Below the pieces are notes generated by a model that saw nothing but the letters and a program-made list of their open reading frames with translations, made no database searches and was not told where the DNA came from. From an uncultured Candidatus Rokubacteria bacterium (GTDB lineage Bacteria; Methylomirabilota; Methylomirabilia; Rokubacteriales; DASRDR01), in the NCBI GenBank assembly GCA_963805625.1, contig CAWDVE010000024.1, forward strand, positions 96,001-160,000: DNA of 64,000 bases, written 5' to 3'. This document shows positions 49,018 to 63,048 of this stretch, piece after piece (the stretch's first letter is position 1; every line of letters starts with the position of its first letter). A program made the translations under genes and the position numbers.

Positions 49018-49701
49018 GTGCAAGACGGCGGCGTCGCCCTGATCATCCCGGCGCTCGACGAGGAGGCCGCGATCCCGGCCGTCCTGCGCGCGGTGCCGCC
49101 GGGTCTCGTGGACGATCTCGTGGTCGTGGACAATGGATCCACCGACCGCACGGCGGCCGTTGCCCGCGCGGCCGGGGCACGGGTCGTCGCGGAGCCGCGT
49201 CGGGGCTACGGCGCGGCGTGCTGGGCTGGTGTCGAGGCGCTCGCCCCGGGAATCGCGGTAGTCGCATTCCTGGACGGTGACGGGAGCCAGGACCCGGGCG
49301 AGTTGCCGCGGCTCCTGTCGCCGCTTCGGGCGCGGAGCGCCGACCTGGTGCTCGGCGCCCGTACGTTCCCGCGCGGGTCGGGGCATCCCTGGCATGCCAT
49401 CCTGGGCACGCGCGCCGTGGCCCTGGTGCTCCGCTGGCGGTTCGGGGTGCGTCTCCGCGACCTCGGACCGTTCCGCGCCATCCGGCGCGACGCCCTGCTC
49501 GCGCTCGAGTTGCGCGATCGCGGCTCCGGCTGGCCCGTCGAGATGGTGGCCCGCGCCGCCCGCCGGGGCCTCCGCATCGCCGAGGTCGAGGTGACGCAGC
49601 GCCCGCGGCTGGCCGGGCGTTCGAAGGTCGCCGGCAGGCTGGGTGCCAGCCTGCACGCCGGGTGGCGATTCATGCGCGTGGCCTTGCGCGAGGGCCGATG
49701 A
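49018..49701 (+). CDS. Glycosyltransferase family 2 (DPM-synthase-like)
   Basis: IIPALDEE, VDNGSTD, GYGAAC, FLDGDGS, DLGPFRAI, GWPVEM. Confidence 0.9.
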   Translation: MQDGGVALIIPALDEEAAIPAVLRAVPPGLVDDLVVVDNGSTDRTAAVARAAGARVVAEPRRGYGAACWAGVEALAPGIAVVAFLDGDGSQDPGELPRLLSPLRARSADLVLGARTFPRGSGHPWHAILGTRAVALVLRWRFGVRLRDLGPFRAIRRDALLALELRDRGSGWPVEMVARAARRGLRIAEVEVTQRPRLAGRSKVAGRLGASLHAGWRFMRVALREGR

Positions 49702-50375
49702 GGATCCCGGTCGCGGTCATGGCGAAGGTGCCGGCAGCCGGGGAGGTCAAGACACGCCTCTGTCCGCCCCTCACGCCGGCCCAGGCGGCTGGCCTCGCGC
49801 GCTGCTTCCTCCAGGACCGGATCGCACAGCTCCGTGAGATCCCGACGGTCGCGCCCGTCGTGGCCTTCACGCCCCCGGAGCGCGAGCCGGAGCTTCGCGC
49901 GCTCCTGCCCGACGGCGTGCGGCTGATCCCGCAGCAGGGCGCCGATCTGGGGGCGCGGCTCGACCGGCTCCTGACGGATCTCATCGCCGAAGGCGCCGTC
50001 GGAGCCATCGCCGTGGACGCCGACAGCCCGACGCTCCCCACCGCGTTCGTCCGCCGGGCGGGCGTGCACCTCGCCGAGCGCGAGGCCGACGTGGTGCTTG
50101 GCCCCTGCGACGACGGCGGCTACTACCTGATCGGCCTCCGGCAGGCCGCCCCGGAACTCTTCCGGGAGATGCCGTGGAGCACGCCCGCCGTGCTCGACGA
50201 GACGGTGGCCCGCGTCCGTCGGGTGGGCCTCCGCCTCGCGCTCCTCCCACCGTGGTTCGACGTCGACCGTGGCGCGGACCTGGAGCGCCTCCGCGCGAGC
50301 GCGCACGGGCCTGGCGCCCACCAGCCCGCCCGAACGCTCGCGTTCCTTGCGCGAGAGCTCGCATGGGCCCTTTGA
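49698..50375 (+). CDS. DUF2064/TIGR04282-type CofC-like transferase
   Basis: [51 protein letters not shown]. Confidence 0.88.
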   Translation: MRIPVAVMAKVPAAGEVKTRLCPPLTPAQAAGLARCFLQDRIAQLREIPTVAPVVAFTPPEREPELRALLPDGVRLIPQQGADLGARLDRLLTDLIAEGAVGAIAVDADSPTLPTAFVRRAGVHLAEREADVVLGPCDDGGYYLIGLRQAAPELFREMPWSTPAVLDETVARVRRVGLRLALLPPWFDVDRGADLERLRASAHGPGAHQPARTLAFLARELAWAL

Positions 50376-51652
50376 TCCTGGCCGGCACCACGCTGGCCGC
50401 GGCGTTCGGTGGAATGCTCTGGCTCGGCGACCTCTTCCACGCCGTCGGATGGTTCGTCGTCCTGTTCGGGCTGGCGAGCGTGGCCTATGCCGTGGCCGTC
50501 GGCTGGGTGCTCCACCGGCCTCCCGCGAGCCTCCAGGCGTTGGGCGTGATTCTAGGTGCCGCCGTCCTCTTCCGCCTGCTGCTGCTGGCGAGCGCTCCGA
50601 CGCTCTCGACGGACCTCTATCGCTATCTCTGGGACGGCAGGCTGGCGATCGCCGGCGTGAGCCCGTACCGTCACCCGGCGAACGCGCCCGAGGTAGCCGG
50701 GTTCCGTGACGCGCTCGTGTATCCACGCTTGAACCACGTCGAGTGGCGCACGATCTATCCTCCCGGCGCGCAGCTCGTCTTCGCTGCGGTCGTGGGGTTT
50801 TGGCCCTCGAGCGTGATCGGGATGAAGCTCGTGATTCTCGTGGTCGATCTCCTGACCATCGGCCTGCTCCTCGGCTGGCTCCGGGCGCTTGGCCGTCCGG
50901 CGGCGTGGGTACTCGTCTACGCCTGGCATCCGTTGGTCGTCGTCGAGTTCGCGGGAAGCGGCCATCTCGACGCGCTCGTGCTAGCTACGACGATCGGGGC
51001 GCTTTGGGCTGCCGCACGGGGGCGTCTGCTCGCGGCAGGTGCGCTCGTTGGCGTCGGCGCCCTCGTGAAACTGTATCCGCTGCTCCTGCTTCCCGCCATC
51101 TGGGGGAGACAGCGGACGCGCGTGCTGGCGGTGGGGCTCGGCGTCGTGGCCGCGGGTTACGCACTCTACTGGCGCGAGGGCGTTGCGGTCTTCGGGTCGC
51201 TCGGGCGATACGTGGCCGAGGAGGAGTTCAACGGCACCCTGCGCGCGATGCTCGAGCTCGGGCTCGCACCCCTGGGGGGGGCCGGCCTTATGGTGGCGCG
51301 TCTTCTCCCTCTGCTCGGGCTCGCCGGACTGGCGCTCGCGGTCGGCTGCGGGACGGCGCCGGCGGAGCGGCGCGCCCGCTGGCTGGTGGGTGGCTACCTT
51401 CTGACCACACCGAACCTCTTTCCGTGGTACGCGCTGTGGATGGTGCCGCTTCAGGCCGCCGCGCCGGCGTGGCCCTGGCTCTACTTGACCTGTGCGGTCG
51501 CCCTGACCTATCTCTCGTTCGCTCAGCCGATCTGGCATATTCCAGTCTGGGTCATCGCCGTGCAGTGGGTTCCCTTTGCGCTCGGGCTGGCTTGGGCGGC
51601 CCGGCCCCGCGATACCGCGCCGAGCGACGTCCTCTGGAGGCCATCCTCGTGA
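50363..51652 (+). CDS. GT87/DUF2029-like polytopic membrane glycosyltransferase (GT-C)
   Basis: STDLYRYLWDG, TIYPP, YAWHPLVVVEFAGSGHLD, PWYALW. Confidence 0.85.
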   Translation: MGPLILAGTTLAAAFGGMLWLGDLFHAVGWFVVLFGLASVAYAVAVGWVLHRPPASLQALGVILGAAVLFRLLLLASAPTLSTDLYRYLWDGRLAIAGVSPYRHPANAPEVAGFRDALVYPRLNHVEWRTIYPPGAQLVFAAVVGFWPSSVIGMKLVILVVDLLTIGLLLGWLRALGRPAAWVLVYAWHPLVVVEFAGSGHLDALVLATTIGALWAAARGRLLAAGALVGVGALVKLYPLLLLPAIWGRQRTRVLAVGLGVVAAGYALYWREGVAVFGSLGRYVAEEEFNGTLRAMLELGLAPLGGAGLMVARLLPLLGLAGLALAVGCGTAPAERRARWLVGGYLLTTPNLFPWYALWMVPLQAAAPAWPWLYLTCAVALTYLSFAQPIWHIPVWVIAVQWVPFALGLAWAARPRDTAPSDVLWRPSS

Positions 51653-52194
51653 GTCTGGCCGACGTGCCCTGGCAGACGCGCTCGAGTCGCGTGGTCTACC
51701 AGAACCCCTGGATCCAAGTCGACGAAAACCAGGTCGAGCTGCCGGATGGGCGCACGACGGTGTATGGCGTCGTCCGGTGCGGCGAGTGCGTCGGCGTGCT
51801 TCCGTTTCTCGACGCGGAGACCGTAGTCCTGATCCGCCAGTATCGGTATGTCGCGCGCGGCGTCTACTGGGAGATGCCGACCGGTGGAGTCCATCCAGGT
51901 GAGAGTCTCGAGGTCGCCGCCCAGCGGGAGCTCGGCGAGGAGATCGGGTATCAGGCGGCCCGCCTCACGCCGCTCGTGTCCTACCATACGTCCAAGAGCG
52001 TGGTCGACGAGGTCGCACACCTCTTCTACGGCGAGGCGCTCACGCCGGTTGTCACTCCGGGTGATTCGACCGAGTTCATCGAGGTACGGCCCGTGCCGTT
52101 CGCGGAGGCGCTCCGGCTGGTGGAGTCGGGAGAGATCATGGACAGCATGACGGTCATCGCGGTCCTGCACGCAGCCAGGCGGCTTGGGCGGTGA
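51649..52194 (+). CDS. NUDIX hydrolase (ADP-ribose pyrophosphatase-like)
   Basis: Nudix box GGVHPGESLEVAAQRELGEEIG; RQYRY; GTGA overlaps on both sides. Confidence 0.92.
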   Translation: MSLADVPWQTRSSRVVYQNPWIQVDENQVELPDGRTTVYGVVRCGECVGVLPFLDAETVVLIRQYRYVARGVYWEMPTGGVHPGESLEVAAQRELGEEIGYQAARLTPLVSYHTSKSVVDEVAHLFYGEALTPVVTPGDSTEFIEVRPVPFAEALRLVESGEIMDSMTVIAVLHAARRLGR

Positions 52195-53195
52195 GCGACC
52201 CGGGACCGGCCGCGCCCCCACCGCTCCCTCGGTCGCTCTACGTCGAGACGACGAGCCGGTGCAACTCGCTCTGCGAGACGTGCATCCTGACCTTCGGCGG
52301 TCGGGAGGCGCCGAAGGATCTCGGCTACCCGGAGTTCCGTCGGATCGTGGACCAGTTCCCGGTGCTCGAGCGGGTCGTCCTCCACGGGATCGGCGAACCC
52401 CTCCTCAACCGCGAGCTGCCCGCGATGATCGAGCACGCGAAGGCGCGCGGCGCGCAGGTCCTGTTCAACACGAACGCCATCACGCTGAATGGCCGGTGGC
52501 CCGCCGCGCTCGTGAACGCGGGACTCGACGAGATCCGCGTCTCCCTCGATGGCTCGACCGCCGAGACATACCGCCGGGTCCGCGGCGTCGACGCGTTCGA
52601 CAAGGTCCTCGACAACCTCGAGGCGTTTGCCGCATATCGGCGGGCGCGCGGTGTGACACACCCGCAGGTGTCACTCTGGTTCACCGGCATGCAGGACACC
52701 CTCCACGAGCTGCCCGGGCTCGTCCCGATCGCCGTGCGGGCGGGTGCGGCCGGGATCCATCTTCAGCGGCTGGTCTACTACGGGCAGGGTCTGGCCGTGA
52801 AGCCGCAGGCGCTGTTCGGCCGGGCCACGGTGGAGCATGAGCGCGTGATACGCGAGACGGGAGTCGCCGCCGCGGCCGCCGGCGTGGCCTTCTCCGCCTC
52901 CGGCGCCACCGCGCCCGAGGTCAGCCTGACGCCACACGGCGTCTCGACTCGCCCCTGGAGCCACTGCCGACGACCCTGGACGCTGGTCTACGTGACCGTG
53001 CACGGGAACGTGCTGCCGTGCTGCATCTCTCCGTTCGTGGCCGATCCGTACGAGGGCATCGTCCTCGGGAATCTCTTCGAGCAGACCCTGGAGGCGATTT
53101 GGGGGGGGGACGGCTATGCGGCCTTCCGGGGGGCGCTCCTGACGGAATCACCGCCCCAGCCGTGCCGTGGGTGCGGCGTATTCTGGAGCCTCTAG
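52191..53195 (+). CDS. Radical SAM protein with SPASM/twitch domain
   Basis: CNSLCETC, GIGEP, C-terminal CRRPW..G.VLPCC..GNL..CRGC. Confidence 0.92.
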   Translation: MSDPGPAAPPPLPRSLYVETTSRCNSLCETCILTFGGREAPKDLGYPEFRRIVDQFPVLERVVLHGIGEPLLNRELPAMIEHAKARGAQVLFNTNAITLNGRWPAALVNAGLDEIRVSLDGSTAETYRRVRGVDAFDKVLDNLEAFAAYRRARGVTHPQVSLWFTGMQDTLHELPGLVPIAVRAGAAGIHLQRLVYYGQGLAVKPQALFGRATVEHERVIRETGVAAAAAGVAFSASGATAPEVSLTPHGVSTRPWSHCRRPWTLVYVTVHGNVLPCCISPFVADPYEGIVLGNLFEQTLEAIWGGDGYAAFRGALLTESPPQPCRGCGVFWSL

Positions 53196-53202
53196 TGGCC
53201 GA

Positions 53203-54207
53203 CTACCGAGCCGAGACGACGGTCGTGCATGCGCTCCCGAGCTTCGGGAGGTCGGCGCCCGCCGCGGGCTCCCAGTCGATGACGAGACGGTCGCCGCGAG
53301 CGAACGGACAGTAGGGGTCAGGCTCCCCCAGGCGGCCGAGCACCGCGCGACGGCCTGCGCACCCGCCTTGACAGGGGCAGCCGGCGCAGGCGGCCGGCCG
53401 TTCGGTCGCCTGCCGGAACTCCGGAGCGCTCGTGATGTCGTCGCCGAGCGCATCCAGGTCCGCGAGCGTGAGCCGGCTCGCCGGCCAGTAGGTGCAGGGG
53501 AGGATCCGACCGTCCGGCGCGAGCCGGATCGTCGAGCGCCCGCAGCCCGGACCCGTGAAGCCCGGGACGCCCAGGACCCCGGCCAGGACCGGCTCGGTGG
53601 TGGCGACCAGACGCGTCGCCCCGAGCAGGCGCCGGAATCCCTCCCAGAACTCGGTGTAGCTGAGCGAGAAGCGGTCGGTCTTCGAGGGCTGGTAGATGTT
53701 GACGCGCAGGTTGGCGCCCCGTCCGGCGGCCACGCGTGCGAGTGCGGGCAGGTGGTCGACGTTGATCTTCATCATGACCGCCGTCACGGTCACGGGCACG
53801 CCGAGCCCCGCGCAGCGCTCCATCGCGGTCTCGACCGTGCGCCAGTTGCCGGCCCCCCGGAAGGCGTCGTGCTCGCGCTCCGTGGGGAAGTCGAGCGAGA
53901 ACTCGACGCCGTGGAACCGCTTGACGGCGGCGTCGGGGAGGGCCTGGATGCTGAGGCCGTTGGAGGTGATGCTCGTCTTGATCCCGTGCGCCCACACGAG
54001 CTCCAGGATCGCCTCGTAGTCCGGATGCAGGCCGTTTTCGCCGACCCCCAGATTCAACGATCGGATCGGGATGCGCTCCACCACACGCCGGACGTCCGCC
54101 AGGGTCAGGCGGGCGATGACCGCGTCCGGCCGGTAGCAGTGTGCGCAGCGCAGGTCGCACTCGTTGGTGAGGCCGATGCCCACCGAGAAGGCCATGTGTG
54201 CCCTCAC
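53203..54207 (-). CDS. Radical SAM protein with SPASM domain
   Basis: CDLRCAHC; C-terminal GCG..DG.ILPC..CAGCPCQGGC..YC. Confidence 0.92.
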   Translation of the reverse strand: MRAHMAFSVGIGLTNECDLRCAHCYRPDAVIARLTLADVRRVVERIPIRSLNLGVGENGLHPDYEAILELVWAHGIKTSITSNGLSIQALPDAAVKRFHGVEFSLDFPTEREHDAFRGAGNWRTVETAMERCAGLGVPVTVTAVMMKINVDHLPALARVAAGRGANLRVNIYQPSKTDRFSLSYTEFWEGFRRLLGATRLVATTEPVLAGVLGVPGFTGPGCGRSTIRLAPDGRILPCTYWPASRLTLADLDALGDDITSAPEFRQATERPAACAGCPCQGGCAGRRAVLGRLGEPDPYCPFARGDRLVIDWEPAAGADLPKLGSACTTVVSAR

Positions 54208-54259
54208 CCGATCTCGCCGAGGGGCCGTCGGGACGCCGGTGGTCGGGCGTCAGTCAAGC

Positions 54260-54862
54260 TCAGACGAGCCAGCGGACGATCCGGGCGAGTGGATGGCCCT
54301 GGGCTGCCGCACGGTCGAGCGGGGGCGCCAGGAACGCGTCGACGCCGAAGCTCCGCCCGGCGTCGGTCAGGAGGAAGAGCACGGGGAACATGATGAGCAT
54401 CGTGTAGGTCCAGCCCCACTCGTTCGGGACGTTCAAGATGCTGACCGTGATGTTGGTCGCCATGCCGATCGCCACGAGGGACCCCAGCCGGGTGCCGAGC
54501 CCGAGAATCAGCGTGACGGCGATGAAGGTCTCGGTGATCAGCGTCATCCAGCCGAAGAAGGTCCAGTGGGGGATCACGACGTGGAGCTGGAAGTCCTTGT
54601 AGGCGGTGAGGGTGGGGTGCTGGATCCCCTGCTGGAACCAGTACCAGAGGCCGCCGCCGGACTTCCGGCCGAAGTCGTCGGAGGGCACCTTCCAGGCGGA
54701 CTGCTGCCACCAGAGGTAGCCGTAGAGGATCCGCGCCAGCCCGAGCGGCCAGAGCGGGGCTGTCGCCCGGAGCCAGCCCACTCGGGCCAAGCTCTCGGCT
54801 CTGACCCCTGCATCACGATCGGTCATCGCGGCAACCTCGCGCACCACCCCTTCCACAGCCAT
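54260..54862 (-). CDS. DoxD/TQO small subunit-like membrane protein (copy 2)
   Basis: GGAGGAG RBS; core nearly identical to 27647-28252. Confidence 0.8.
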   Translation of the reverse strand: MAVEGVVREVAAMTDRDAGVRAESLARVGWLRATAPLWPLGLARILYGYLWWQQSAWKVPSDDFGRKSGGGLWYWFQQGIQHPTLTAYKDFQLHVVIPHWTFFGWMTLITETFIAVTLILGLGTRLGSLVAIGMATNITVSILNVPNEWGWTYTMLIMFPVLFLLTDAGRSFGVDAFLAPPLDRAAAQGHPLARIVRWLV

Positions 54863-55220: not shown

Positions 55221-55727
55221 CTACTCGGGACCGGGATCTCCCCCGGCCAGATGGACCGTCTCGTCGCCAACCCGCACCACCGCATCCCATGTGACCTCGA
55301 TGGCCCCCTTGACGCTCTGGTGCGCGGGGCACCCCTGGGGATGGAGCGTCAGGGCGCGCTCCGTCGCCTCGCGCGTCCCGAGCGGTACGGCGACGTCGTA
55401 GTGGACGTGGATGGATCGAATCCGAATGGTCTTGCCGATGCCGGCGATGCGACCTTTCACGGTGGCCCTGAACGACTCCCGATCGAAGGCAACCTGGCGC
55501 CCTGCCAGGGCGCCACGCAGGGTGCCGTACATTCAGCCGGCCACGGCGGCCACGATGTGGTCCAGCGTCGACGCGATGGGCGGTCCCTCGCTGACCCCAT
55601 AGTATTGGCGGAGCTTTCCCTGCACGCCGTAGACGATCGGTTCCGGGACGTCGCCGAGCCATGCGTGGCGGTAGCCATTGCGGTATTCGATCCGAGCCGA
55701 GGAGATGTACTCGAAGTCGTCGCTCAT
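55221..55727 (-). CDS. OsmC/Ohr-like protein with in-frame UGA (probable selenocysteine)
   Basis: ORFs 55533-55817 and 55221-55532 are in frame: ...DHIVAAVAG-TGA-MYGTL...GCPAHQSV. The UGA sits at the first OsmC catalytic Cys. AAAGGAG RBS before MSDDF. Confidence 0.85.
55495..55515 (-). promoter_or_regulatory. Candidate bacterial SECIS hairpin (OsmC-like gene)
   Basis: mRNA UGGCGCCCU-GGC-AGGGCGCCA, a perfect 9-bp stem starting 18 nt after the UGA, with a G-first loop. Confidence 0.6.
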
Positions 55728-56010
55728 GGCGAACGCTCCTTTCATGGAGGTGGCGTGTGGATCACTAGGCGGTCGATCTCGGTGGCCTCGATGGGCGGAA
55801 CCCTCCGGACGGCCCAAGGGTATTCGACACGGTCGGGGCGGGGCGCGATTCGCGGTCCTGCAGATGGCGCGGCCCTGGCGTCAGCGAATCGCCCAGCGTC
55901 CGGCGAGCGTCAGAAGGTCAAGTGACGGGAGACCGTCGGACGGCCGAGAGCGCGTTAGCGTCACCGCGGCGCGCCAGCGGGCCAACGGCGCTTGTGAACG
56001 GGAGACATCG

Positions 56011-57021
56011 ATGCCGCTTCCACCGAGGGACTTCAGCAAGATCGGACCCAACGAGGGCGAGCCGTTCCCGGACGTGTGCCTGCCGGACCAGACGGGGACG
56101 ACCATCGACCTCCACCACGCGCGGGCGACCGGGAAGGCGATCGTGGTGGTCCACCGCAGCGCGGAGTGGTGACCCTACTGCAAGACGCAGCTGGTCCAGC
56201 TGCAACAGGTGCTTCCGGCGCTCGAACGCAACGGCATCAGCCTTTTCGCCATCAGCTACGATTCGGTGGCGATCCTCGCCGCGTTTGCCGCGAAGCACGG
56301 GATCCGCTATCCGCTGTTGTCGGACGAGGGGAGCCATACCCTGCGCCGCCTGGGTCTGATCAACGAGCGCGTCCACGAAGACCACGCCGCCTACGGGATT
56401 CAGCCCAATCCCCGGCACGTGGGCGTGCCGTACCCTGGGGTGTTCGTCCTCAACGAGCTGGGCGTCGTCGCCCGGAAGCGCTTCCACGAGAGTTATCGCG
56501 AGCGCGACACCGGCGCGGGTCTGCTCGCCCAGTCCCTCGGCATCTTCGATACCCCGCGCGGGACTGAGACGACGGCCAGCGGGCCTACCGTGCGCGTGCG
56601 AGCCTGGCTCGATTCACCGACGTACAGCGTGTTCCAGCGTCTGCACCTGTCCGTAGAACTCACAATTGCGCCCGGGCTGCACGTGTACGGCGCCCCGGCT
56701 CCCAACGGGGCCACCCCACTGTCGCTGGACGTGAGTCCGATCGATGGTCTCGAGCTCCGGCCGATGAGCTGGCCCGAGCCCCGACGTCTCCGGATGGCCG
56801 GACTCGATGAGGAGCTCTGGGTGCATGAGGGGACCATCCGTGGCGCGCTGCCTGTCGCGTTTACGGCTCCAGCCGGTGGCGGCGATCACCGCCTGACGGT
56901 TGTCGTAAGCTACCAGGCCTGCAGCAACGCGGTGTGCTACCCGCCCGATGCGGTGCGGCTGGAGCTGTCGGTGAAAGAGATCGCGCTCGTGGACCGGACT
57001 CTTCCTAACGCGAAATCCTGA
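56011..57021 (+). CDS. AhpC/TSA peroxiredoxin-like domain with UxxC motif (probable selenoprotein) fused to a DsbD-N-like domain
   Basis: GEPFPDVCLPDQTG..HRSAEW-TGA-PYCKTQLVQL..AISYD..LLSD..PYPGVFVL; TGA at 56170-56172 is in frame; C-terminal LHVY..YQACSNAVCYPP. Confidence 0.9.
56187..56203 (+). promoter_or_regulatory. Candidate bacterial SECIS hairpin (peroxiredoxin-like gene)
   Basis: GCAGCTG-GTC-CAGCTGC, a 7-bp stem with loop GU at +22/+23 from the UGA, similar to the E. coli fdhF SECIS geometry. Confidence 0.7.
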
Positions 57022-57084: not shown

Positions 57085-57143
57085 GGGTAGCCGCTCAGCT
57101 TGAGCACACAGCTCTCGGGCGCGAGATTGCCCTTGAGCACGCT
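57085..57143 (-). pseudogene. Short IlvD/Edd dehydratase-like fragment
   Basis: VLKGNLAPESCVLKLSG resembles the LxGNLAPxGxVxK motif. Confidence 0.45.
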
Positions 57144-57149
57144 GATGTG

Positions 57150-57455
57150 TGGATGTCGCGCTCGAGCGACAGATCGAGCAAAAAGCTCGTCTCCTCCAGC
57201 GTGTTGGTGCCTTGTGTCACCACGACGCCGTCGGCATCGAGAGTACGAATTCGAGCCGCCAGCTCGTAGATTTGGTCGATCGACAGCGAGTGGCTACCGA
57301 CGCGCGATACTGTCTCGGTTCGGATGGCGGCTAGTCTGGCCAGCGTCAGCACGGCGGCACCCAGATCGTCGGCACCCAACCCCATCTGCATGGCACCCGA
57401 CGCATCCGGGCGCGTGGCGATCGTGCCGCCGAGCGCCAGGACGTGGACGCGCAGC
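57150..57455 (-). pseudogene. L-asparaginase N-terminal fragment
   Basis: VLALGGTIA and GVVVTQGTNTLEETSFLL. Confidence 0.75.
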
Positions 57456-57694
57456 AAGCCCGTCACTTCAGTCCGAGGGACTCGACGGGGCGGGCCATCG
57501 GGGCGTCGCATCGGGTTGGCCAGATTGCGCAAAGCCGGCGGCTAGAGAAGCCTGGTTCCTCTCGAAGAGCTTCCACTTGATGCCAACTGGTCGCCTCAAT
57601 GGCCCGACACAGCGTGTGTGACCGGCGATCACTAGTCGACCTCGTGACTCCCCTAAGATTCGGCCACTCCGGCTGAGAGTTCGTTTCGCCCGGT

Positions 57695-58378
57695 TCAGGT
57701 TGAGTTTCCGTGGAGCGACTCCAACACCGCATCCGTCTTCTCCAGCCAGAAGCCCATGCCCATCTCGCGGTACATCGTCGTCGCGATCGCGAGATGCTCA
57801 CGGGCCTGCTCCCGCTGGCCCGTTCGCCGGTGGAGCTTGCCGAGCCCGAGATGGCAGTGGGCGACGAGGGGGCGCATGCCGAGTTCGGAAGCCAGCGTCA
57901 TGGCGGCGCCGTAGTGCGCCTCGGCCGTTGCCACGTCAGGATCGTCGTGATACGAGGCGACCTCGCCGAGAAGGCGGAGGGCCCATGCCTCGTGACCCCG
58001 CTCACCGCGCTCGCGGGCGAGCCTCACGGCGCGGTCGGCAGAGGCGCGGAGGTCCTCGACCCGGTCCGCCAGGAGCTCCATGGAGCCCTTGAGGTCAGCG
58101 AACAGGACCGTGACCAGCTTCCGCTCCCCTTCGAGCGCGGCCTTCGAGGTGAGGATCCGCTCGGCGAGATGCTTGGGTGTATAGGACTGGGGGGCCGCGA
58201 AGCGTGTCGCCGCCGAGGCGGTGGGAACAGTCACTCGCGCCCCACACTTTCGGCAAAAGTTGTCGTCTGGGGCGGTTGCCGCGCCGCATTGCGGGCACCC
58301 GACGTGGAGCTTCGCCCCGCACTTCGGGCAGAAGGCCGCGTCCGAGGGCGTTTCCTGCTCGCATCGCGGACAGTTCAT
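57695..58378 (-). pseudogene. Double zinc ribbon / class III cyclase / TPR family gene with in-frame deletion of the centre
   Basis: Four CxxC pairs, YTPKHLAERIL, ERKLVTVLFADLKGS fused directly to the terminal TPR (GMRPLVAHCHLGLG..MYREMGMGFW). Confidence 0.8.
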
Positions 58379-58391
58379 ACAGGCTCTCGGC

Positions 58392-61050
58392 CTACGTCGA
58401 CTCGTTTAGCTGGGTCTCCGCCTGCGCCAGCCAGAAGCCCATGCCCATCTCGCGGTACATCGTCGTCGCGGTCGCCAGATGCTCCCGGGCCCGCTCCCGC
58501 TTGCCCGTTCGCCGGTAGAGCTTGCCGAGGCCCAGGTGGCAGTGGGCGGCCAGCGGGCGCATGCCGAGTTCGTCGGCTCGCGCGAGGGCCTGGCGGTAGT
58601 GCTCCTCGGCGGTCTTGACGTCGGGAGGGTCGGCCTGTGCGGCGATCTCGCCGAGGAGGCGGAGGACCCAGGCCTCGTTGCCGCGCTCCTTCTGCCGGTG
58701 CGCGAGGTCTAGCGCGCGTTGCGCGATCGCGAGCGCGTCGTCTCGGCGACGGGCGAGAAGGTGCCCCTCACCGAGGTAGGCCAGGAGAAGCGGATGGAAA
58801 GCGGTGCCCGTCGACTCGGGGTCCGCGAGCGCCTCCTCCATGAGGCTCACGCCCTCCGCGAGGCGACCCGACAGCGCATACGCGTAGCCGAGATGCGCGG
58901 CCGTGATGTCGAAGAGGACCGGCGCGGCGACCCGGCACAGCTCCACGGCACGCTCGAGCGGCGGAATGGCCTCGGCGATCGCACCCCGGCGGAGGAAAAC
59001 GAAGCCCAGGCTCCGGCATGAGAAGGCGAGGGGGGAGAGTTGATTGACTTCGCTAGCGATCCGGAGAGCCTCCTCGGCGTGCGCCATCGCCTCCGCGAAC
59101 TCACCCAGCTCGGCGAGGCACCAGACGAGCCGTCCTCGTGAGATGACCGATCCGACGACGGTGACGGTCACACCCCCCGACGAGACCAAGCCATCGTACC
59201 GCCGACCGGCAGGATCTATGTCCTACAGAGTCTCGCCCAGCCGGCTGAATGCCTCCACGCTCTCTCGATAGTTCCCCGTGGACTGCCCGATCGCAGCCAG
59301 CGTGTAGTTCACGGATGCCTGGAGCAAGACGTCACCGAGGCCGCTGGCGAGGGCCAGAGCCCGCCGGGCCAGCTCGAGCCCGCGATCCGTCTCACCCCAG
59401 TTCCAGGCTTGGGTCCCGAGGAGCAGGAGGGCCCGCCCCAGCCGCCGATCGTCGCCCACCGCTTCCGCGAGAGCCTCGGCTCGTCGGGCGTGCGCGACGC
59501 TCTTCGCCCGCTCCCCCACCGTCGTCAGGCCGCGGCCGGCGTCGAAATGGAGGTCGATCGCCCGCTCCCGCCACTCCGTCTCTTGCGGGAGATGCGCGAG
59601 CGCCTCGAGCGCCTGCTCGAAGCAGGTCACCGCCTCCCGGTAGGCCGAGCGCTCCGTCGCCTTCCCGCCGGCCTGACGGAGGTAGGTCACCGCCTGTTCC
59701 CATACCTCCCCCCGGAGCGCGTGGTGGGCCAGGCGCTCGATGTGCTCCGAGAGCCGCTCTGGGTAGCACCGCTCGATGGCCTCGACCGCCCGGGCGTGGA
59801 GGGCGCGCCGGCGATCCTGCAGGAGGCTCCCGTAGGCGACCTCGTGGGTCAGCGCGTGCTTGAAGCTGTACTCAACGTCGGGGAACAGACTCGTCTCGTA
59901 CAGGAACTCGGCGGCCTGGAGCCGGCCGAGGCCCTCGGCCAGCGCGTCCGCCGGTTCTCCCGCGACACCCGCGAGCACGGCCAGCGGGACGTTGGTGCCG
60001 ATCACCGAGGCCGTCTGGAGGAGGTCCTTGTCCTCTGTCGGCAACCGGTCAATGCGCGCCGCCAGGATCGCGTGCACCGTCGTCGGCACGTGGATGGCCT
60101 TCGTAGCCTTCAGGAGCCGATACGCACCGCGCGCGCCGGCTAGCACTCCCTCGTCCACGAGGCTCCGCACGCTCTCTTCGAATCGGGTGAGCCCCTGCGC
60201 GGCCGCCGCGGAGAGCCGCGAGCGCCGGGGCCCCGCGCCCGTGAGCTCGTAGTTCTCCACCGGGGCCGGCAGCCCCTTGATCGGCATCGCGCCGAGCGGC
60301 TTGATCTCGACGTACCCTTCCACTAAGCGGAGGGTGTCGGCCGTCAGAAACGTCGTGCCCGGGCTGGCCAGTTGCTCCATGCGGGCGGCCAGGTGCGTCG
60401 TCTAGCCTATCGCGCTGTAGTCCATGCGGAGGTCGCTCCCGATGGTGCGCACCACGACTTCGCCGGAGTTCAGACCCACCCGGACCTCGACGGTCACGCC
60501 GTGCGCGCGCCGGAGGTCCTCGGTCAGCCGCCGCATCGCCCGCTGGAGATCGATCGCGGCGTAGCACGCCCGTACCGCGTGGTCCTCGTGAGCGACGGGC
60601 GCACCGAAGAGCGCCATAATCCCGTCGCCCATCACCTGGTTCACGATGCCCTCGTAGCGGTGGACGGCCTCCATCATCCGCTGGAGGACGGGATCGAGGA
60701 GCTTCCGAGCCTCCTCGGGATCCCGGTCAACCAGGAGCTCCGTCGAGCCTTTCACGTCGGCGAAGAGGACCGTGACCTGTTTGCGCTCGCCCTCGAGGGG
60801 CGCTCTTCGAAGTGAGGATCTTCTCGGCGAGATGCTTCGGGGTAAACGACTGCGGTGAGGTAAAGGCCGGGGAGCCTCCCAGCGACGGTGTAGGGGTTTC
60901 GGTCACGCGCGTACCGCACTTGCCGCAGAAGGCGAATCCCTCGGAGTTCGCGTAGCCGCAGGACGGGCACTGTGTCGCCAGCCTCACTCCACAGCGCCCG
61001 CAGAACGCCATCGCGGGCGGATTCTCGAAGGTGCATCGCGGACAGATCAT
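58392..61050 (-). pseudogene. Double zinc ribbon / adenylate-guanylate cyclase / TPR protein, degraded
   Basis: Frameshift near 60800; in-frame TAG at 60402 and 59223; cyclase motifs GDGIMALFGAP and RVGLNSGEV; the P-loop ATPase region is missing at the GLTRF/EESVRSL junction. Confidence 0.85.
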
Positions 61051-61580
61051 GCTCCGCGGTCCCTCATCTCTGGCTCCGCCTGCTCCAGCCAGAAGGTCAT
61101 GCCCATCTCGCGGTACATCGTGGCAGCGGTCGTCAGGTGCTCTTGCGCCCTTGCGGCGTCACCCGTCCTCCGGTGGAGCGTGCCGAGCCCGAGGTGGCAG
61201 TGCGCAACGAGCGGGCGCATGCCGAGCTCGCCGGCGAGGGCCAGCGCCTCACCGTAGTAGCCGGGAGTGTCCTCGGCGCCGCCGCCGGCCGACGCGACAT
61301 CACCGGCGAGACAGAGGGCGTGCGCCTCGCTGGCCCGAGCCCCTAGCCGGCGGCTGAGCGCCAGCGCCTCTCGCGCGTGGTCGGCGGCCTCGTCGAGCCG
61401 CCCGGCCGAGAGGGAGGTCATCCTCGCGCACAGCAGAATGAGGGCCGGCCGGTTGTGAGACGGGCGGCTGCGGAACTCCTCGAGGGCGCCTGCCACCAAC
61501 GGGCGCGCCTCGTCAGCCCGGCCGGCGAGGGCGTAGGCGGCGCCGAGAGTCGCGGCGACGATCGGTGTCCAGAAGACCTG
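61047..61580 (-). pseudogene. C-terminal TPR fragment of a third cyclase-TPR paralogue
   Basis: LGAAYALAGR..GMRPLVAHCHLGLG..MYREMGMTFW; its stop overlaps the ATG of the next copy. Confidence 0.75.
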
Positions 61581-61589
61581 CTGCCAGGT

Positions 61590-61750
61590 TCGGACACGAT
61601 GACGTGGCCATGCCGGGCGGCGTAGTTCCACACGGCGTCGTCCGTGGCCCCCGACAGGCCGACGTCGCGAACGTGCGTCGATCCCGGGAAGAGGTCGGCC
61701 AGGGCTCGAACCAACCGGGGCGGGAGGTTCTGGTCGAGCAGGAGCCTCAC
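61590..61750 (-). pseudogene. DUF5615 (PIN-like, VapC45-type) toxin, truncated
   Basis: MRLLLDQNLPPRL..HVRDVGL..ATDDAVWNYA..IVS, cut before the expected KD.DF motif. Confidence 0.8.
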
Positions 61751-61974
61751 GCGGGCGGAAGCGCCATCAGGCGGCGCTCACGCTCAGCCGCGAACGCCAG
61801 GCACGCCCGGATGTCCTCCGGCGTGAGGTCCGGGAAGTCGCGGAGGATCTCCTCTTGGGACATCCCCGACGCCAGGTAGTCGAGGACATCGTAGACGGTG
61901 ATCCGAAGCCCCCGGATGCACGGCTTACCGCCGAGCTTGTCCGGTTCGATCGTGATGCGCTCCCGATAGTCCAT
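61747..61974 (-). CDS. DUF433 antitoxin
   Basis: RITIEPDKLGGKPCIRGLRITVYDVL..GMSQEEILRDFPDLTPEDIRACL. Confidence 0.93.
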   Translation of the reverse strand: MDYRERITIEPDKLGGKPCIRGLRITVYDVLDYLASGMSQEEILRDFPDLTPEDIRACLAFAAERERRLMALPPA

Positions 61975-63048
61975 GCGCCGAGAATACGGGTGGGGTTCAG
62001 TCAGGTCAACCTTGGCCACCCGATCTGTGAGGGAGGCGCGGTAGCGAGCCGGGCCGAAGAAGGGAGAGAGGATGGACGGCAAGATAAAGGTGTACGCGGG
62101 ACGTCGGCCAAGTGCTTGTTGACACTAACCATTCTGTAGGAGGGCCGTGCGAACCCTGGTTCGTGACAGCCCTCTCGGAGGGCCGTGCGGGCTACATTGG
62201 CGGGGAGGAGGACCCGGCCGCGGGTTCACGACGTCGGAGGAGGCGCGTCAGGCGGGCTCGCAGGCCGCCAGGGGTCGCGACCGCAACCTGGCTTGATGAT
62301 CCGGCAGGAGCGTCTCGACGCTTCCCTCGGCCTTCAACTCGCGTCCGGCCGGGCCGGTCGGCGGCCTCGAGATTCTCGGTGGTGTCGCCTGCCAGTGGCA
62401 TCGGTGACACCGGCTGGCGGCTTCCTCCGCGTCGGGCAGCGGCCAGGGCACGGACCGACCGGAGGCGGTGAGCATGCGCGTCACCGCACGACGCCAGTGC
62501 GCAAACCGTCGCTCGCCACTCATGAGCGCCCGGGCCTGGGCCGCCGGAGGCACCTCCAGCGTACAACACAGGAACGGGCTACTCCCCTTGTACTGCCGCC
62601 GACGCATTTGGCCACGGGAGACAGGATGGGCGCCTCCGAAGGGCCTCTTGGCGAGGCGGTTCGTCTCCGGAGTAGATGCGGCACTTCGCAGCGCGAACCG
62701 TGCGTTTTGCAGCGAGTCCGCTCAGCCCACCTGTGGCGTTCTCTTCGGCGGCTCACCCACCCGTCCGCTCGATTCGGTGCGGACTTGCAGCACCTATGAC
62801 GGTGGTCCAGTGCGCCTGGCATGCCGATTGGACGGCTCACACCCAACACGATCGGTGCCAACGCATGCCGGGAGAGGTCGGCACGTTCCGCAGAAGGTGG
62901 GCGGGTGATCGTCGATGTTGCCGGGCCAGGTGAATGAGGCCGCTTCGACGAGCCGCGATGGACACCACCACCCGCTCGCACAGTTTCAGGGTAGAGAGAC
63001 CGAATAAGGGCCGAGCGCAAGGAGAAGGCCGATGGATCAACTCTTGAG

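Follow-up and report, generated by a model that had tools for sequence, protein, structure and literature searches.

Two in-frame UGAs almost certainly read as selenocysteine in an OsmC-like gene and a Prx-like UxxC/nDsbD-like fusion gene whose products may form a cytoplasmic redox module

Two adjacent genes in the window (the whole 64,000-nt stretch of DNA analyzed here) are each interrupted by one in-frame TGA at a Cys-equivalent column. This raises the question of whether the two codons are stops or selenocysteine (Sec) codons, and of what the products would do. Our main reading is that both UGAs encode Sec and that the products work together as a cytoplasmic redox module, the fusion protein re-reducing the Sec-containing OsmC-like peroxidase. 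We give this combined reading a probability of about 0.45. The two genes and their elements are as follows.

55221..55727, minus strand: OsmC-like selenoprotein gene (P0001, 168 aa with TGA read as U; Pfam OsmC)
55533..55535, minus strand: Sec codon U65, at the place of the first catalytic Cys in OsmC (TGA in 109/109 loci)
55495..55515, minus strand: SECIS-like hairpin of osmC (9-bp stem, loop GGC, -16.9 kcal/mol)
55329..55331, minus strand: C133, resolving Cys in GCPAH (Cys codon in 108/109 loci; invariant in alignment A1)
55728..56010, no strand: divergent intergenic region of 283 nt with Shine-Dalgarno-like sites before both ATGs
56011..57021, plus strand: Prx-like UxxC/nDsbD-like fusion selenoprotein gene (P0002, 336 aa; Pfam and model)
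56026..56028, plus strand: rare AGG Arg codon 6, whose AG completes the osmC TAG stop in tandem relatives
56170..56181, plus strand: active site U54-P-Y-C57 in RSAEW-U54-PYC57 (TGA at 56170-56172; TGA and Cys57 each in 88/88 loci)
56187..56203, plus strand: SECIS-like hairpin of the fusion gene (7-bp stem, loop GUC, -9.8 kcal/mol)
56560..56976, plus strand: nDsbD/ScsB-alpha-like Ig domain with C304-x4-C309 (56920, 56935; Pfam DsbD_N 43 bits)

As the preliminary description had proposed, each gene has one in-frame TGA at a column occupied by Cys in homologues. All 109 of the 110 examined OsmC loci that cover the column have TGA, as do all 88 of the 92 examined fusion loci that cover it, both sets including the window itself and some duplicated loci. 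The named records among these loci are mostly Methylomirabilota/Rokubacteria and Chloroflexota, which suggests that the window comes from a member of the Methylomirabilota. The OsmC-like frame contains this single TGA, in the context AAVAG-U65-MYGT, and the partner motifs reported earlier, CPAH and W-U-PYC, are present as GC133PAH and W-U54-PY-C57. Relaxed selection after the UGA would have spoken against recoding; conservation is similar on the two sides, with a mean identity before and after U of 0.62 and 0.56 in OsmC and 0.66 and 0.59 in the fusion. The competing explanation, that the TGAs are true stops of pseudogenes or split genes or are decoded as Trp or Cys, appears very improbable to us. 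A few database proteins do have W, S or R at the column, an ATG stands directly after the osmC UGA, and selB is frameshifted in the assembly. Against this, the TGA is invariant in the Methylomirabilota and Chloroflexota records and the two halves are equally conserved, and ordinary genes in the genome, the fusion gene included, also terminate with TGA.

A hairpin with a G-first loop 22-27 nt past each UGA had also been claimed, and the loops begin 27 nt (osmC) and 22 nt (fusion) past it, both within 16-37 nt of the UGA. Both hairpins are perfect, have a G-first triloop and agree with the consensus bacterial SECIS constraints quoted in an excerpt of PMC13188914. The shuffle z over 76 nt is -1.25 for osmC and 0.08 for the fusion, and a lenient SECIS model accepts 63/80 (osmC) and 58/80 (fusion) synonymous-resampled controls, compared with 93/101 and 59/59 real sequences, so that the hairpins alone are not beyond chance in a genome of 69% GC. 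It is the conservation, rather than the presence, of the hairpins that exceeds chance expectation. In the osmC stem, the synonymous codon GCA at +10 has a frequency of 92% against a background of 4%, GGG at +11 is at 100% against 12%, and the stem pair 24-32 is C-G in 56 and G-C in 11 of 81 sequences, indicating compensatory change. In the fusion stem, ACG and CTG are each found in 59/59 sequences against backgrounds of 51% and 30%, with a closing pair, again compensatory, of G-C in 28, C-G in 24 and G-G in 7 of 59. Over the SECIS window, 74/81 osmC and 59/59 fusion sequences fold better than their synonymously resampled versions, whereas downstream control windows do so in 105/243 and 110/177 cases, all these counts being drawn from related, non-independent sequences.

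Outside the window, the genome (G000) contains the Sec machinery that the preliminary description had suggested searching for. selA scores above its cut-off and is adjoined by selB, selD carries an in-frame TGA of its own, and a tRNA-Sec with a UCA anticodon is present. A frameshift at a C7G5 run (G000:C21:224982-224988; L003:1485) breaks selB into two frames offset by one base. In a contig of 417 nt from run X1 that shows no other difference, this stretch is one base longer; it is a single contig of depth 4.2 and possibly not independent of the assembly's sample. The selB of relatives reads through the frameshift spot uninterrupted, and the selB cut-off is passed by 35/40 relatives (14/14 in the genus; two as partial matches). 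The frameshift is thus most likely an assembly error as judged from these sequences, which further weakens the true-stop reading. A real loss of selB was rejected in view of the extra base in the near-identical contig and the intact selB of relatives. Sec use is routine in this genome, since 14 of its 27 AhpC-TSA matches have TGA at a Cys motif. The motifs at these 14 loci are of the TxxU, UxxC, WUGC and PTU types, and a SECIS-like hairpin accompanies most of them; two of the loci are adjacent on C4 (167991-168919). Given the invariant TGA at a Cys-equivalent column, the conserved SECIS stems, the conservation on both sides of the UGA and the Sec machinery, both internal UGAs are almost certainly decoded as Sec, as the preliminary description had held. 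From what is known of these families, we are highly confident that SelB and tRNA-Sec would read both of them.

Standard annotation does not miss the two proteins, as had been suggested, but truncates them. Of the best 120 OsmC matches among annotated database proteins, 111 start at the post-UGA Met, and 116 of the best 120 fusion matches do not include the UxxC region. An ATG directly follows the osmC UGA (55530-55532, minus strand) in 81/81 close-clade sequences, which were selected on MYG/MFG. Gene callers therefore begin a 103-aa ORF after the UGA. Database matches number 2264 for OsmC and 1079 for the fusion, the top ones being mostly post-UGA fragments. Reading through the UGAs would correct two large, routinely truncated gene families of soil Methylomirabilota/Rokubacteria and Chloroflexota.

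The OsmC-like protein matches Pfam OsmC (PF02566) with 40 bits (cut-off 27.5), and its predicted model (pLDDT 85) has the OsmC/Ohr fold and matches OsmC/Ohr structures. U65 is aligned with the catalytic Cys of PDB 1ukk and 1qwi. U65 and C133 correspond to the Cys pair, about 60 residues apart, that together with the fold defines the OsmC/Ohr superfamily. Arg20, Arg77 and Arg124 are conserved. Leu55 occupies the column of the usual catalytic Glu, which we presume from residue numbering to be this column, and the adjacent Asp56 is invariant. Because Leu55 stands at the Glu column, OsmC peroxidase activity is not assured, although Asp56 is invariant beside it. According to an excerpt of PMC5384416, characterized Ohr/OsmC proteins require Arg and Glu and are reduced by lipoyl groups, and "Ohr-like" proteins without the catalytic Arg/Glu residues are also described there.

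P0001 resembles the OsmC-like selenoproteins of Zhang, Fomenko and Gladyshev (2005; accessible part of PMC1088965; PF02566; NF041052) in its OsmC fold, in having Sec at the first catalytic Cys with a SECIS downstream, and in a second Cys 68 residues after U. The family motif in that source is UxxT, whereas U65..T69 of P0001 gives UxxxT and departs from the strict spacing; G68 is kept across the MYG, MTG and LTG OsmC clades. P0001 scores 18.6 bits against NCBIfam NF041052 (OsmC_like_Se), far under the cut-off of 95, and thus represents an uncurated subfamily. Its best E-value among 23 NF041052 members is 3e-8.

The predicted model of the fusion protein (pLDDT 91, pTM 0.87) is that of a soluble protein. 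The preliminary description called it a peroxiredoxin-DsbD-N fusion. The Prx fold, the UxxC motif and the DsbD_N domain stand, but a true peroxiredoxin it is not. P0002 matches PF00578 (AhpC-TSA) with 87 bits, and its fold neighbors are AhpE (Z 20.5) and BcpB (Z 20.1); for the whole fusion, Foldseek gave solely Prx-fold structures among the matches listed. The Prx motif PxxxT/SxxC(U) is absent from P0002 (RSAEWUPYC), and U54 is aligned with the Thr that opens the TxxC motif of BCP (TPGC). The position of the Prx catalytic Arg falls on Y141/P142, the BCP segment "SRE-TF" being aligned with "PYPGVF", and P142 is invariant. The contrast at this position is between the catalytic Arg of Prx and a putative cis-Pro. 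P0002 has no catalytic Arg ahead of the last strands, and the label "peroxiredoxin" was ruled out for it by the missing PxxxT/SxxC motif, the missing Arg and the U at the Thr position. True peroxiredoxins (BCP/PrxQ and AhpE; Sec form TxxU) have the closest fold to P0002 but a different motif. Since U54 is at the BCP Thr and the Arg position lies inside an invariant P-Y-P stretch, P0002 is classified by its sequence as a "Prx-like 1" oxidoreductase, with a Prx fold and a UxxC site of the thioredoxin type.

"Prx-like 1" selenoproteins combine a PF00578 domain with UxxC, as P0002 does, in the accessible part of the GOS study of 2008 (PMC2398784), and the motif is shared with entries of its Dataset S1. 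Several GOS Prx-like 1 members and many database homologues have a signal-peptide-like start, whereas the P0002 clade has none, and the coupling to Sec-osmC is a feature of the P0002 clade, unlike the GOS proteins in that part of the source. Many wider fusion homologues have a signal peptide and C at the Sec column. Among 32 fusion representatives examined, 21 are full-length and match the motif, and 19 of these 21 have C at this column in the protein sequence. P0244, a database protein of 616 aa, is matched twice by the fusion profile and may be a duplication. The closest fusion homologue (L139:289, 87% identical) has ATA at the start position and may be decaying or carry a sequencing error.

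The C-terminal domain of P0002 matches the N-domain of ScsB (6c29) with Z 13.0, rmsd 2.3 and 124 aligned residues, and its Cys loop aligns weakly with E. coli nDsbD (E 0.26). The domain has the Ig fold and the Cys pair in a YQxC-x4/5-CYPP loop that mark nDsbD/ScsB-alpha. A thioredoxin-fold dithiol and an Ig-fold Cys pair are likewise combined in the DsbD/ScsB relay (ScsB-TlpA-PprX of Caulobacter; excerpt of PMC3322552), and by this analogy the P0002 dithiol and Ig-fold Cys pair could plausibly feed a peroxidase. Compared with the relay described there, P0002 is without the transmembrane domain and export of a DsbD/ScsB transporter, has the reversed domain order, is predicted to be cytoplasmic and bears Sec. 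No signal peptide was evident in a crude scan of P0002 (N-terminal hydropathy maximum 0.3). Both Cys of the nDsbD domain are found in 75/86 loci, and the pair is incomplete, and hence dispensable unlike in the relay of that excerpt, in 11/86, seven of them tandem.

The preliminary description emphasized divergent transcription, which holds in the window with its 283-nt spacer. It is not the typical layout. In 92 fusion rows, osmC is directly upstream on the same strand in 61 and downstream in 5; 2 rows are the window itself, and 24 are without osmC, 15 of those extending less than 600 nt upstream. The idea that divergence is conserved was rejected. Among the 70 metagenome fusion loci that reach at least 150 nt upstream of the gene, 53 have osmC directly before it. 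In 61/61 tandem loci (43 distinct junctions), the stop codon of osmC is 17 nt into the fusion gene. In 43/43 distinct junctions this stop is TAG, its T being the last base of codon 5 and its AG the first two bases of codon 6, which is AGA or AGG. AGA/AGG accounts for 17/309 comparable Arg codons elsewhere in these genes, and is also retained at codon 6 in 14/23 non-tandem fusion rows. In the fusion gene here AGG is still present while the T of TAG is gone, and the similarity of the osmC tail to those of tandem loci ends at the old ATG. From these three points we infer a break at the old osmC/fusion junction. The AGG codon 6 would be a relic of the overlapping TAG. The divergent layout would have arisen by local rearrangement from an overlapping pair with both genes in one direction, the fusion gene having apparently been inverted relative to osmC-doxX-rSAM in this genome. 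The spacer is covered piecewise by short contigs from X1, X3 and X4, runs of three studies; no single contig spans it, and a scan of it found no sigma-70 consensus promoter or terminator. In the L139 locus, doxX is back-to-back with the fusion gene and osmC is absent.

The pairing of osmC and the fusion is spread over several OsmC subclades in a quick tree, used unrooted, of near-full-length rows with E<1e-45. The fusion partner is optional for Sec-osmC, and the link is not obligatory. The fusion is present in 6 of the 77 genome loci of osmC that extend 600 nt or more downstream, and 151 genomes of the phylum contain the fusion in 7 and a close-type osmC in 51. In family f2, the fusion was found in 4/50 genomes carrying close-type osmC, with 14 candidates per genome scored, and is in tandem in all 4. 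Two other genomes of the window's own family that have the fusion lack close-type osmC in this survey, the same-genus genomes G003, G009 and G014 have the fusion and no close-type osmC, and close-type osmC was found in G000 only among 13 own-family genomes searched. This distribution hints that G000 may have acquired its close-type osmC. In 9/80 genome loci (L020, L025, L030, L033, L036, L037, L039, L040 and L049), Sec-osmC is immediately preceded by a Sec Prx-like gene of a second type (FYRGRW-U-PYC), its TGA confirmed at 8 of the 9; 8 of the 9 loci fall in one OsmC clade.

We propose that OsmC acts as a dimer in which U65 would attack an organic hydroperoxide and then form a Se-S bond with C133, a step that we consider probable. 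The fusion would work as a soluble, reversed cDsbD-nDsbD pair, whose thioredoxin-type U54/C57 site could reduce the OsmC Se-S bond directly or through C304/C309; for this step our confidence falls somewhat short of even. nDsbD/ScsB-alpha domains reduce partner oxidoreductases in an excerpt of PMC3322552, and by analogy with ScsB-alpha feeding TlpA/PprX a reductase-peroxidase module is the best reading of the pairing. It is favored by the 17-nt overlap, by the frequent position of osmC upstream of the fusion and by the spread of the pairing across OsmC subclades. That a different UxxC Prx-like gene also lies upstream of Sec-osmC points the same way. The optional partner, the incomplete nDsbD Cys pairs, the lipoyl reductant of Ohr/OsmC (excerpt of PMC5384416) and Leu55 at the Glu column disfavor it. 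A close rival is that both selenoproteins are real but independent, with lipoyl recycling OsmC, the fusion reducing other substrates and the operon reflecting only shared regulation among selenium-using stress genes. We regard this as possible, if rather less than an even bet. It agrees with the known lipoyl reductant (PMC5384416, in the part cited), with either gene often being found without the other, and with the operon being broken in this genome and osmC lost from the L139 locus. It does not account well for an overlap kept at exactly 17 nt in every tandem locus, nor for osmC being paired with two different UxxC Prx-like partners. A more specific form of the redox module is a dedicated, lipoyl-independent Sec-to-Sec relay, in which the cytoplasmic DsbD-like fusion would recycle Sec-OsmC. 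Through the overlap, translation of the reductase would depend on Sec having been read through in osmC, so that selenium would gate the operon. We consider this form doubtful. If the relay is true, an OsmC-type enzyme would have a protein as its reductant in place of lipoyl groups, and an nDsbD domain would be shown to work in the cytoplasm.

The genes beside osmC suggest another possible role for the pair. Four of them recur near it.

49662..50375, plus strand: TIGR04282-family glycosyltransferase, recurrent neighbor (171.5 bits, cut-off 134)
52191..53195, plus strand: radical SAM/SPASM gene, recurrent neighbor
53203..54207, minus strand: radical SAM gene, recurrent neighbor
54260..54862, minus strand, start approximate: DoxX/DoxD-like membrane gene, following the pair in L151 and L153

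The cluster at 49030-54862 comprises a GT2, the TIGR04282 glycosyltransferase, a membrane protein, which we take to be GT87-like, a Nudix gene, radical SAM/SPASM, radical SAM and DoxX. The pair might serve a specialized biosynthetic or metalloid pathway of the radical SAM-SPASM-TIGR04282-Nudix-DoxX neighbors, rather than general peroxide defense. We find this unlikely, and a weaker rival than independent function. At least one cluster neighbor lies near the fusion in 25/80 metagenome loci, many of them short, and TIGR04282 is near osmC in 10/80 genome loci in several arrangements; the TIGR04282 neighbor is above its curated cut-off, and the family name refers to arsenosugar biosynthesis. Against this, the neighbors are missing from most loci and their order varies. 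Neither radical SAM passes any curated family cut-off, and the 25 best families for each of them do not include TIGR04167, the ArsS type. When the neighbors were scanned for the arsenosugar set (ArsS, TIGR04282 and TIGR04283), TIGR04282 was above cut-off, whereas the GT2 neighbor scored 34 bits against TIGR04283, far under the cut-off of 182.

Both genes are real selenoprotein genes of already published families, and what is new, namely the cytoplasmic clade of the fusion and the overlap that couples it to Sec-osmC, is modest. OsmC-like and Prx-like UxxC selenoproteins have been in print since the Sargasso study of 2005 (accessible part of PMC1088965) and are also in inventories of 2022 and 2026. 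The 2026 review (PMC13188914, excerpt) cites a Methylomirabilota MAG with 63 predicted selenoproteins. Dataset S1 of the GOS study (PMC2398784) lists 13 RSADWU sequences under "Prx-like 1", one of which extends to an nDsbD-type YQAC..C end and is this fusion. The term "DsbD" is absent from that paper's text, and the passages and tables covered do not name the fusion. No description of the operon or the fusion was found in the literature searched, nor in PMC12013277 or PMC13326102 with its supplement. The overlapping pair is likewise undescribed in the literature searched, though Haft and Tolstoy (2025) or Deng et al. (2026) could already have it.

Just downstream of the fusion gene, a truncated N-terminal asparaginase fragment (Pfam PF00710) lies at 57095-57532 on the minus strand. 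It is followed at 57695-61631, minus strand, by several fragmented gene copies with zinc-ribbon starts and near-identical repeated ends, presumably of adenylate cyclase/AAA/TPR-type genes. At 61418-62082, also on the minus strand, is a small toxin-antitoxin-type pair, which we take to be DUF433/DUF5615-like, with its second gene apparently disrupted.
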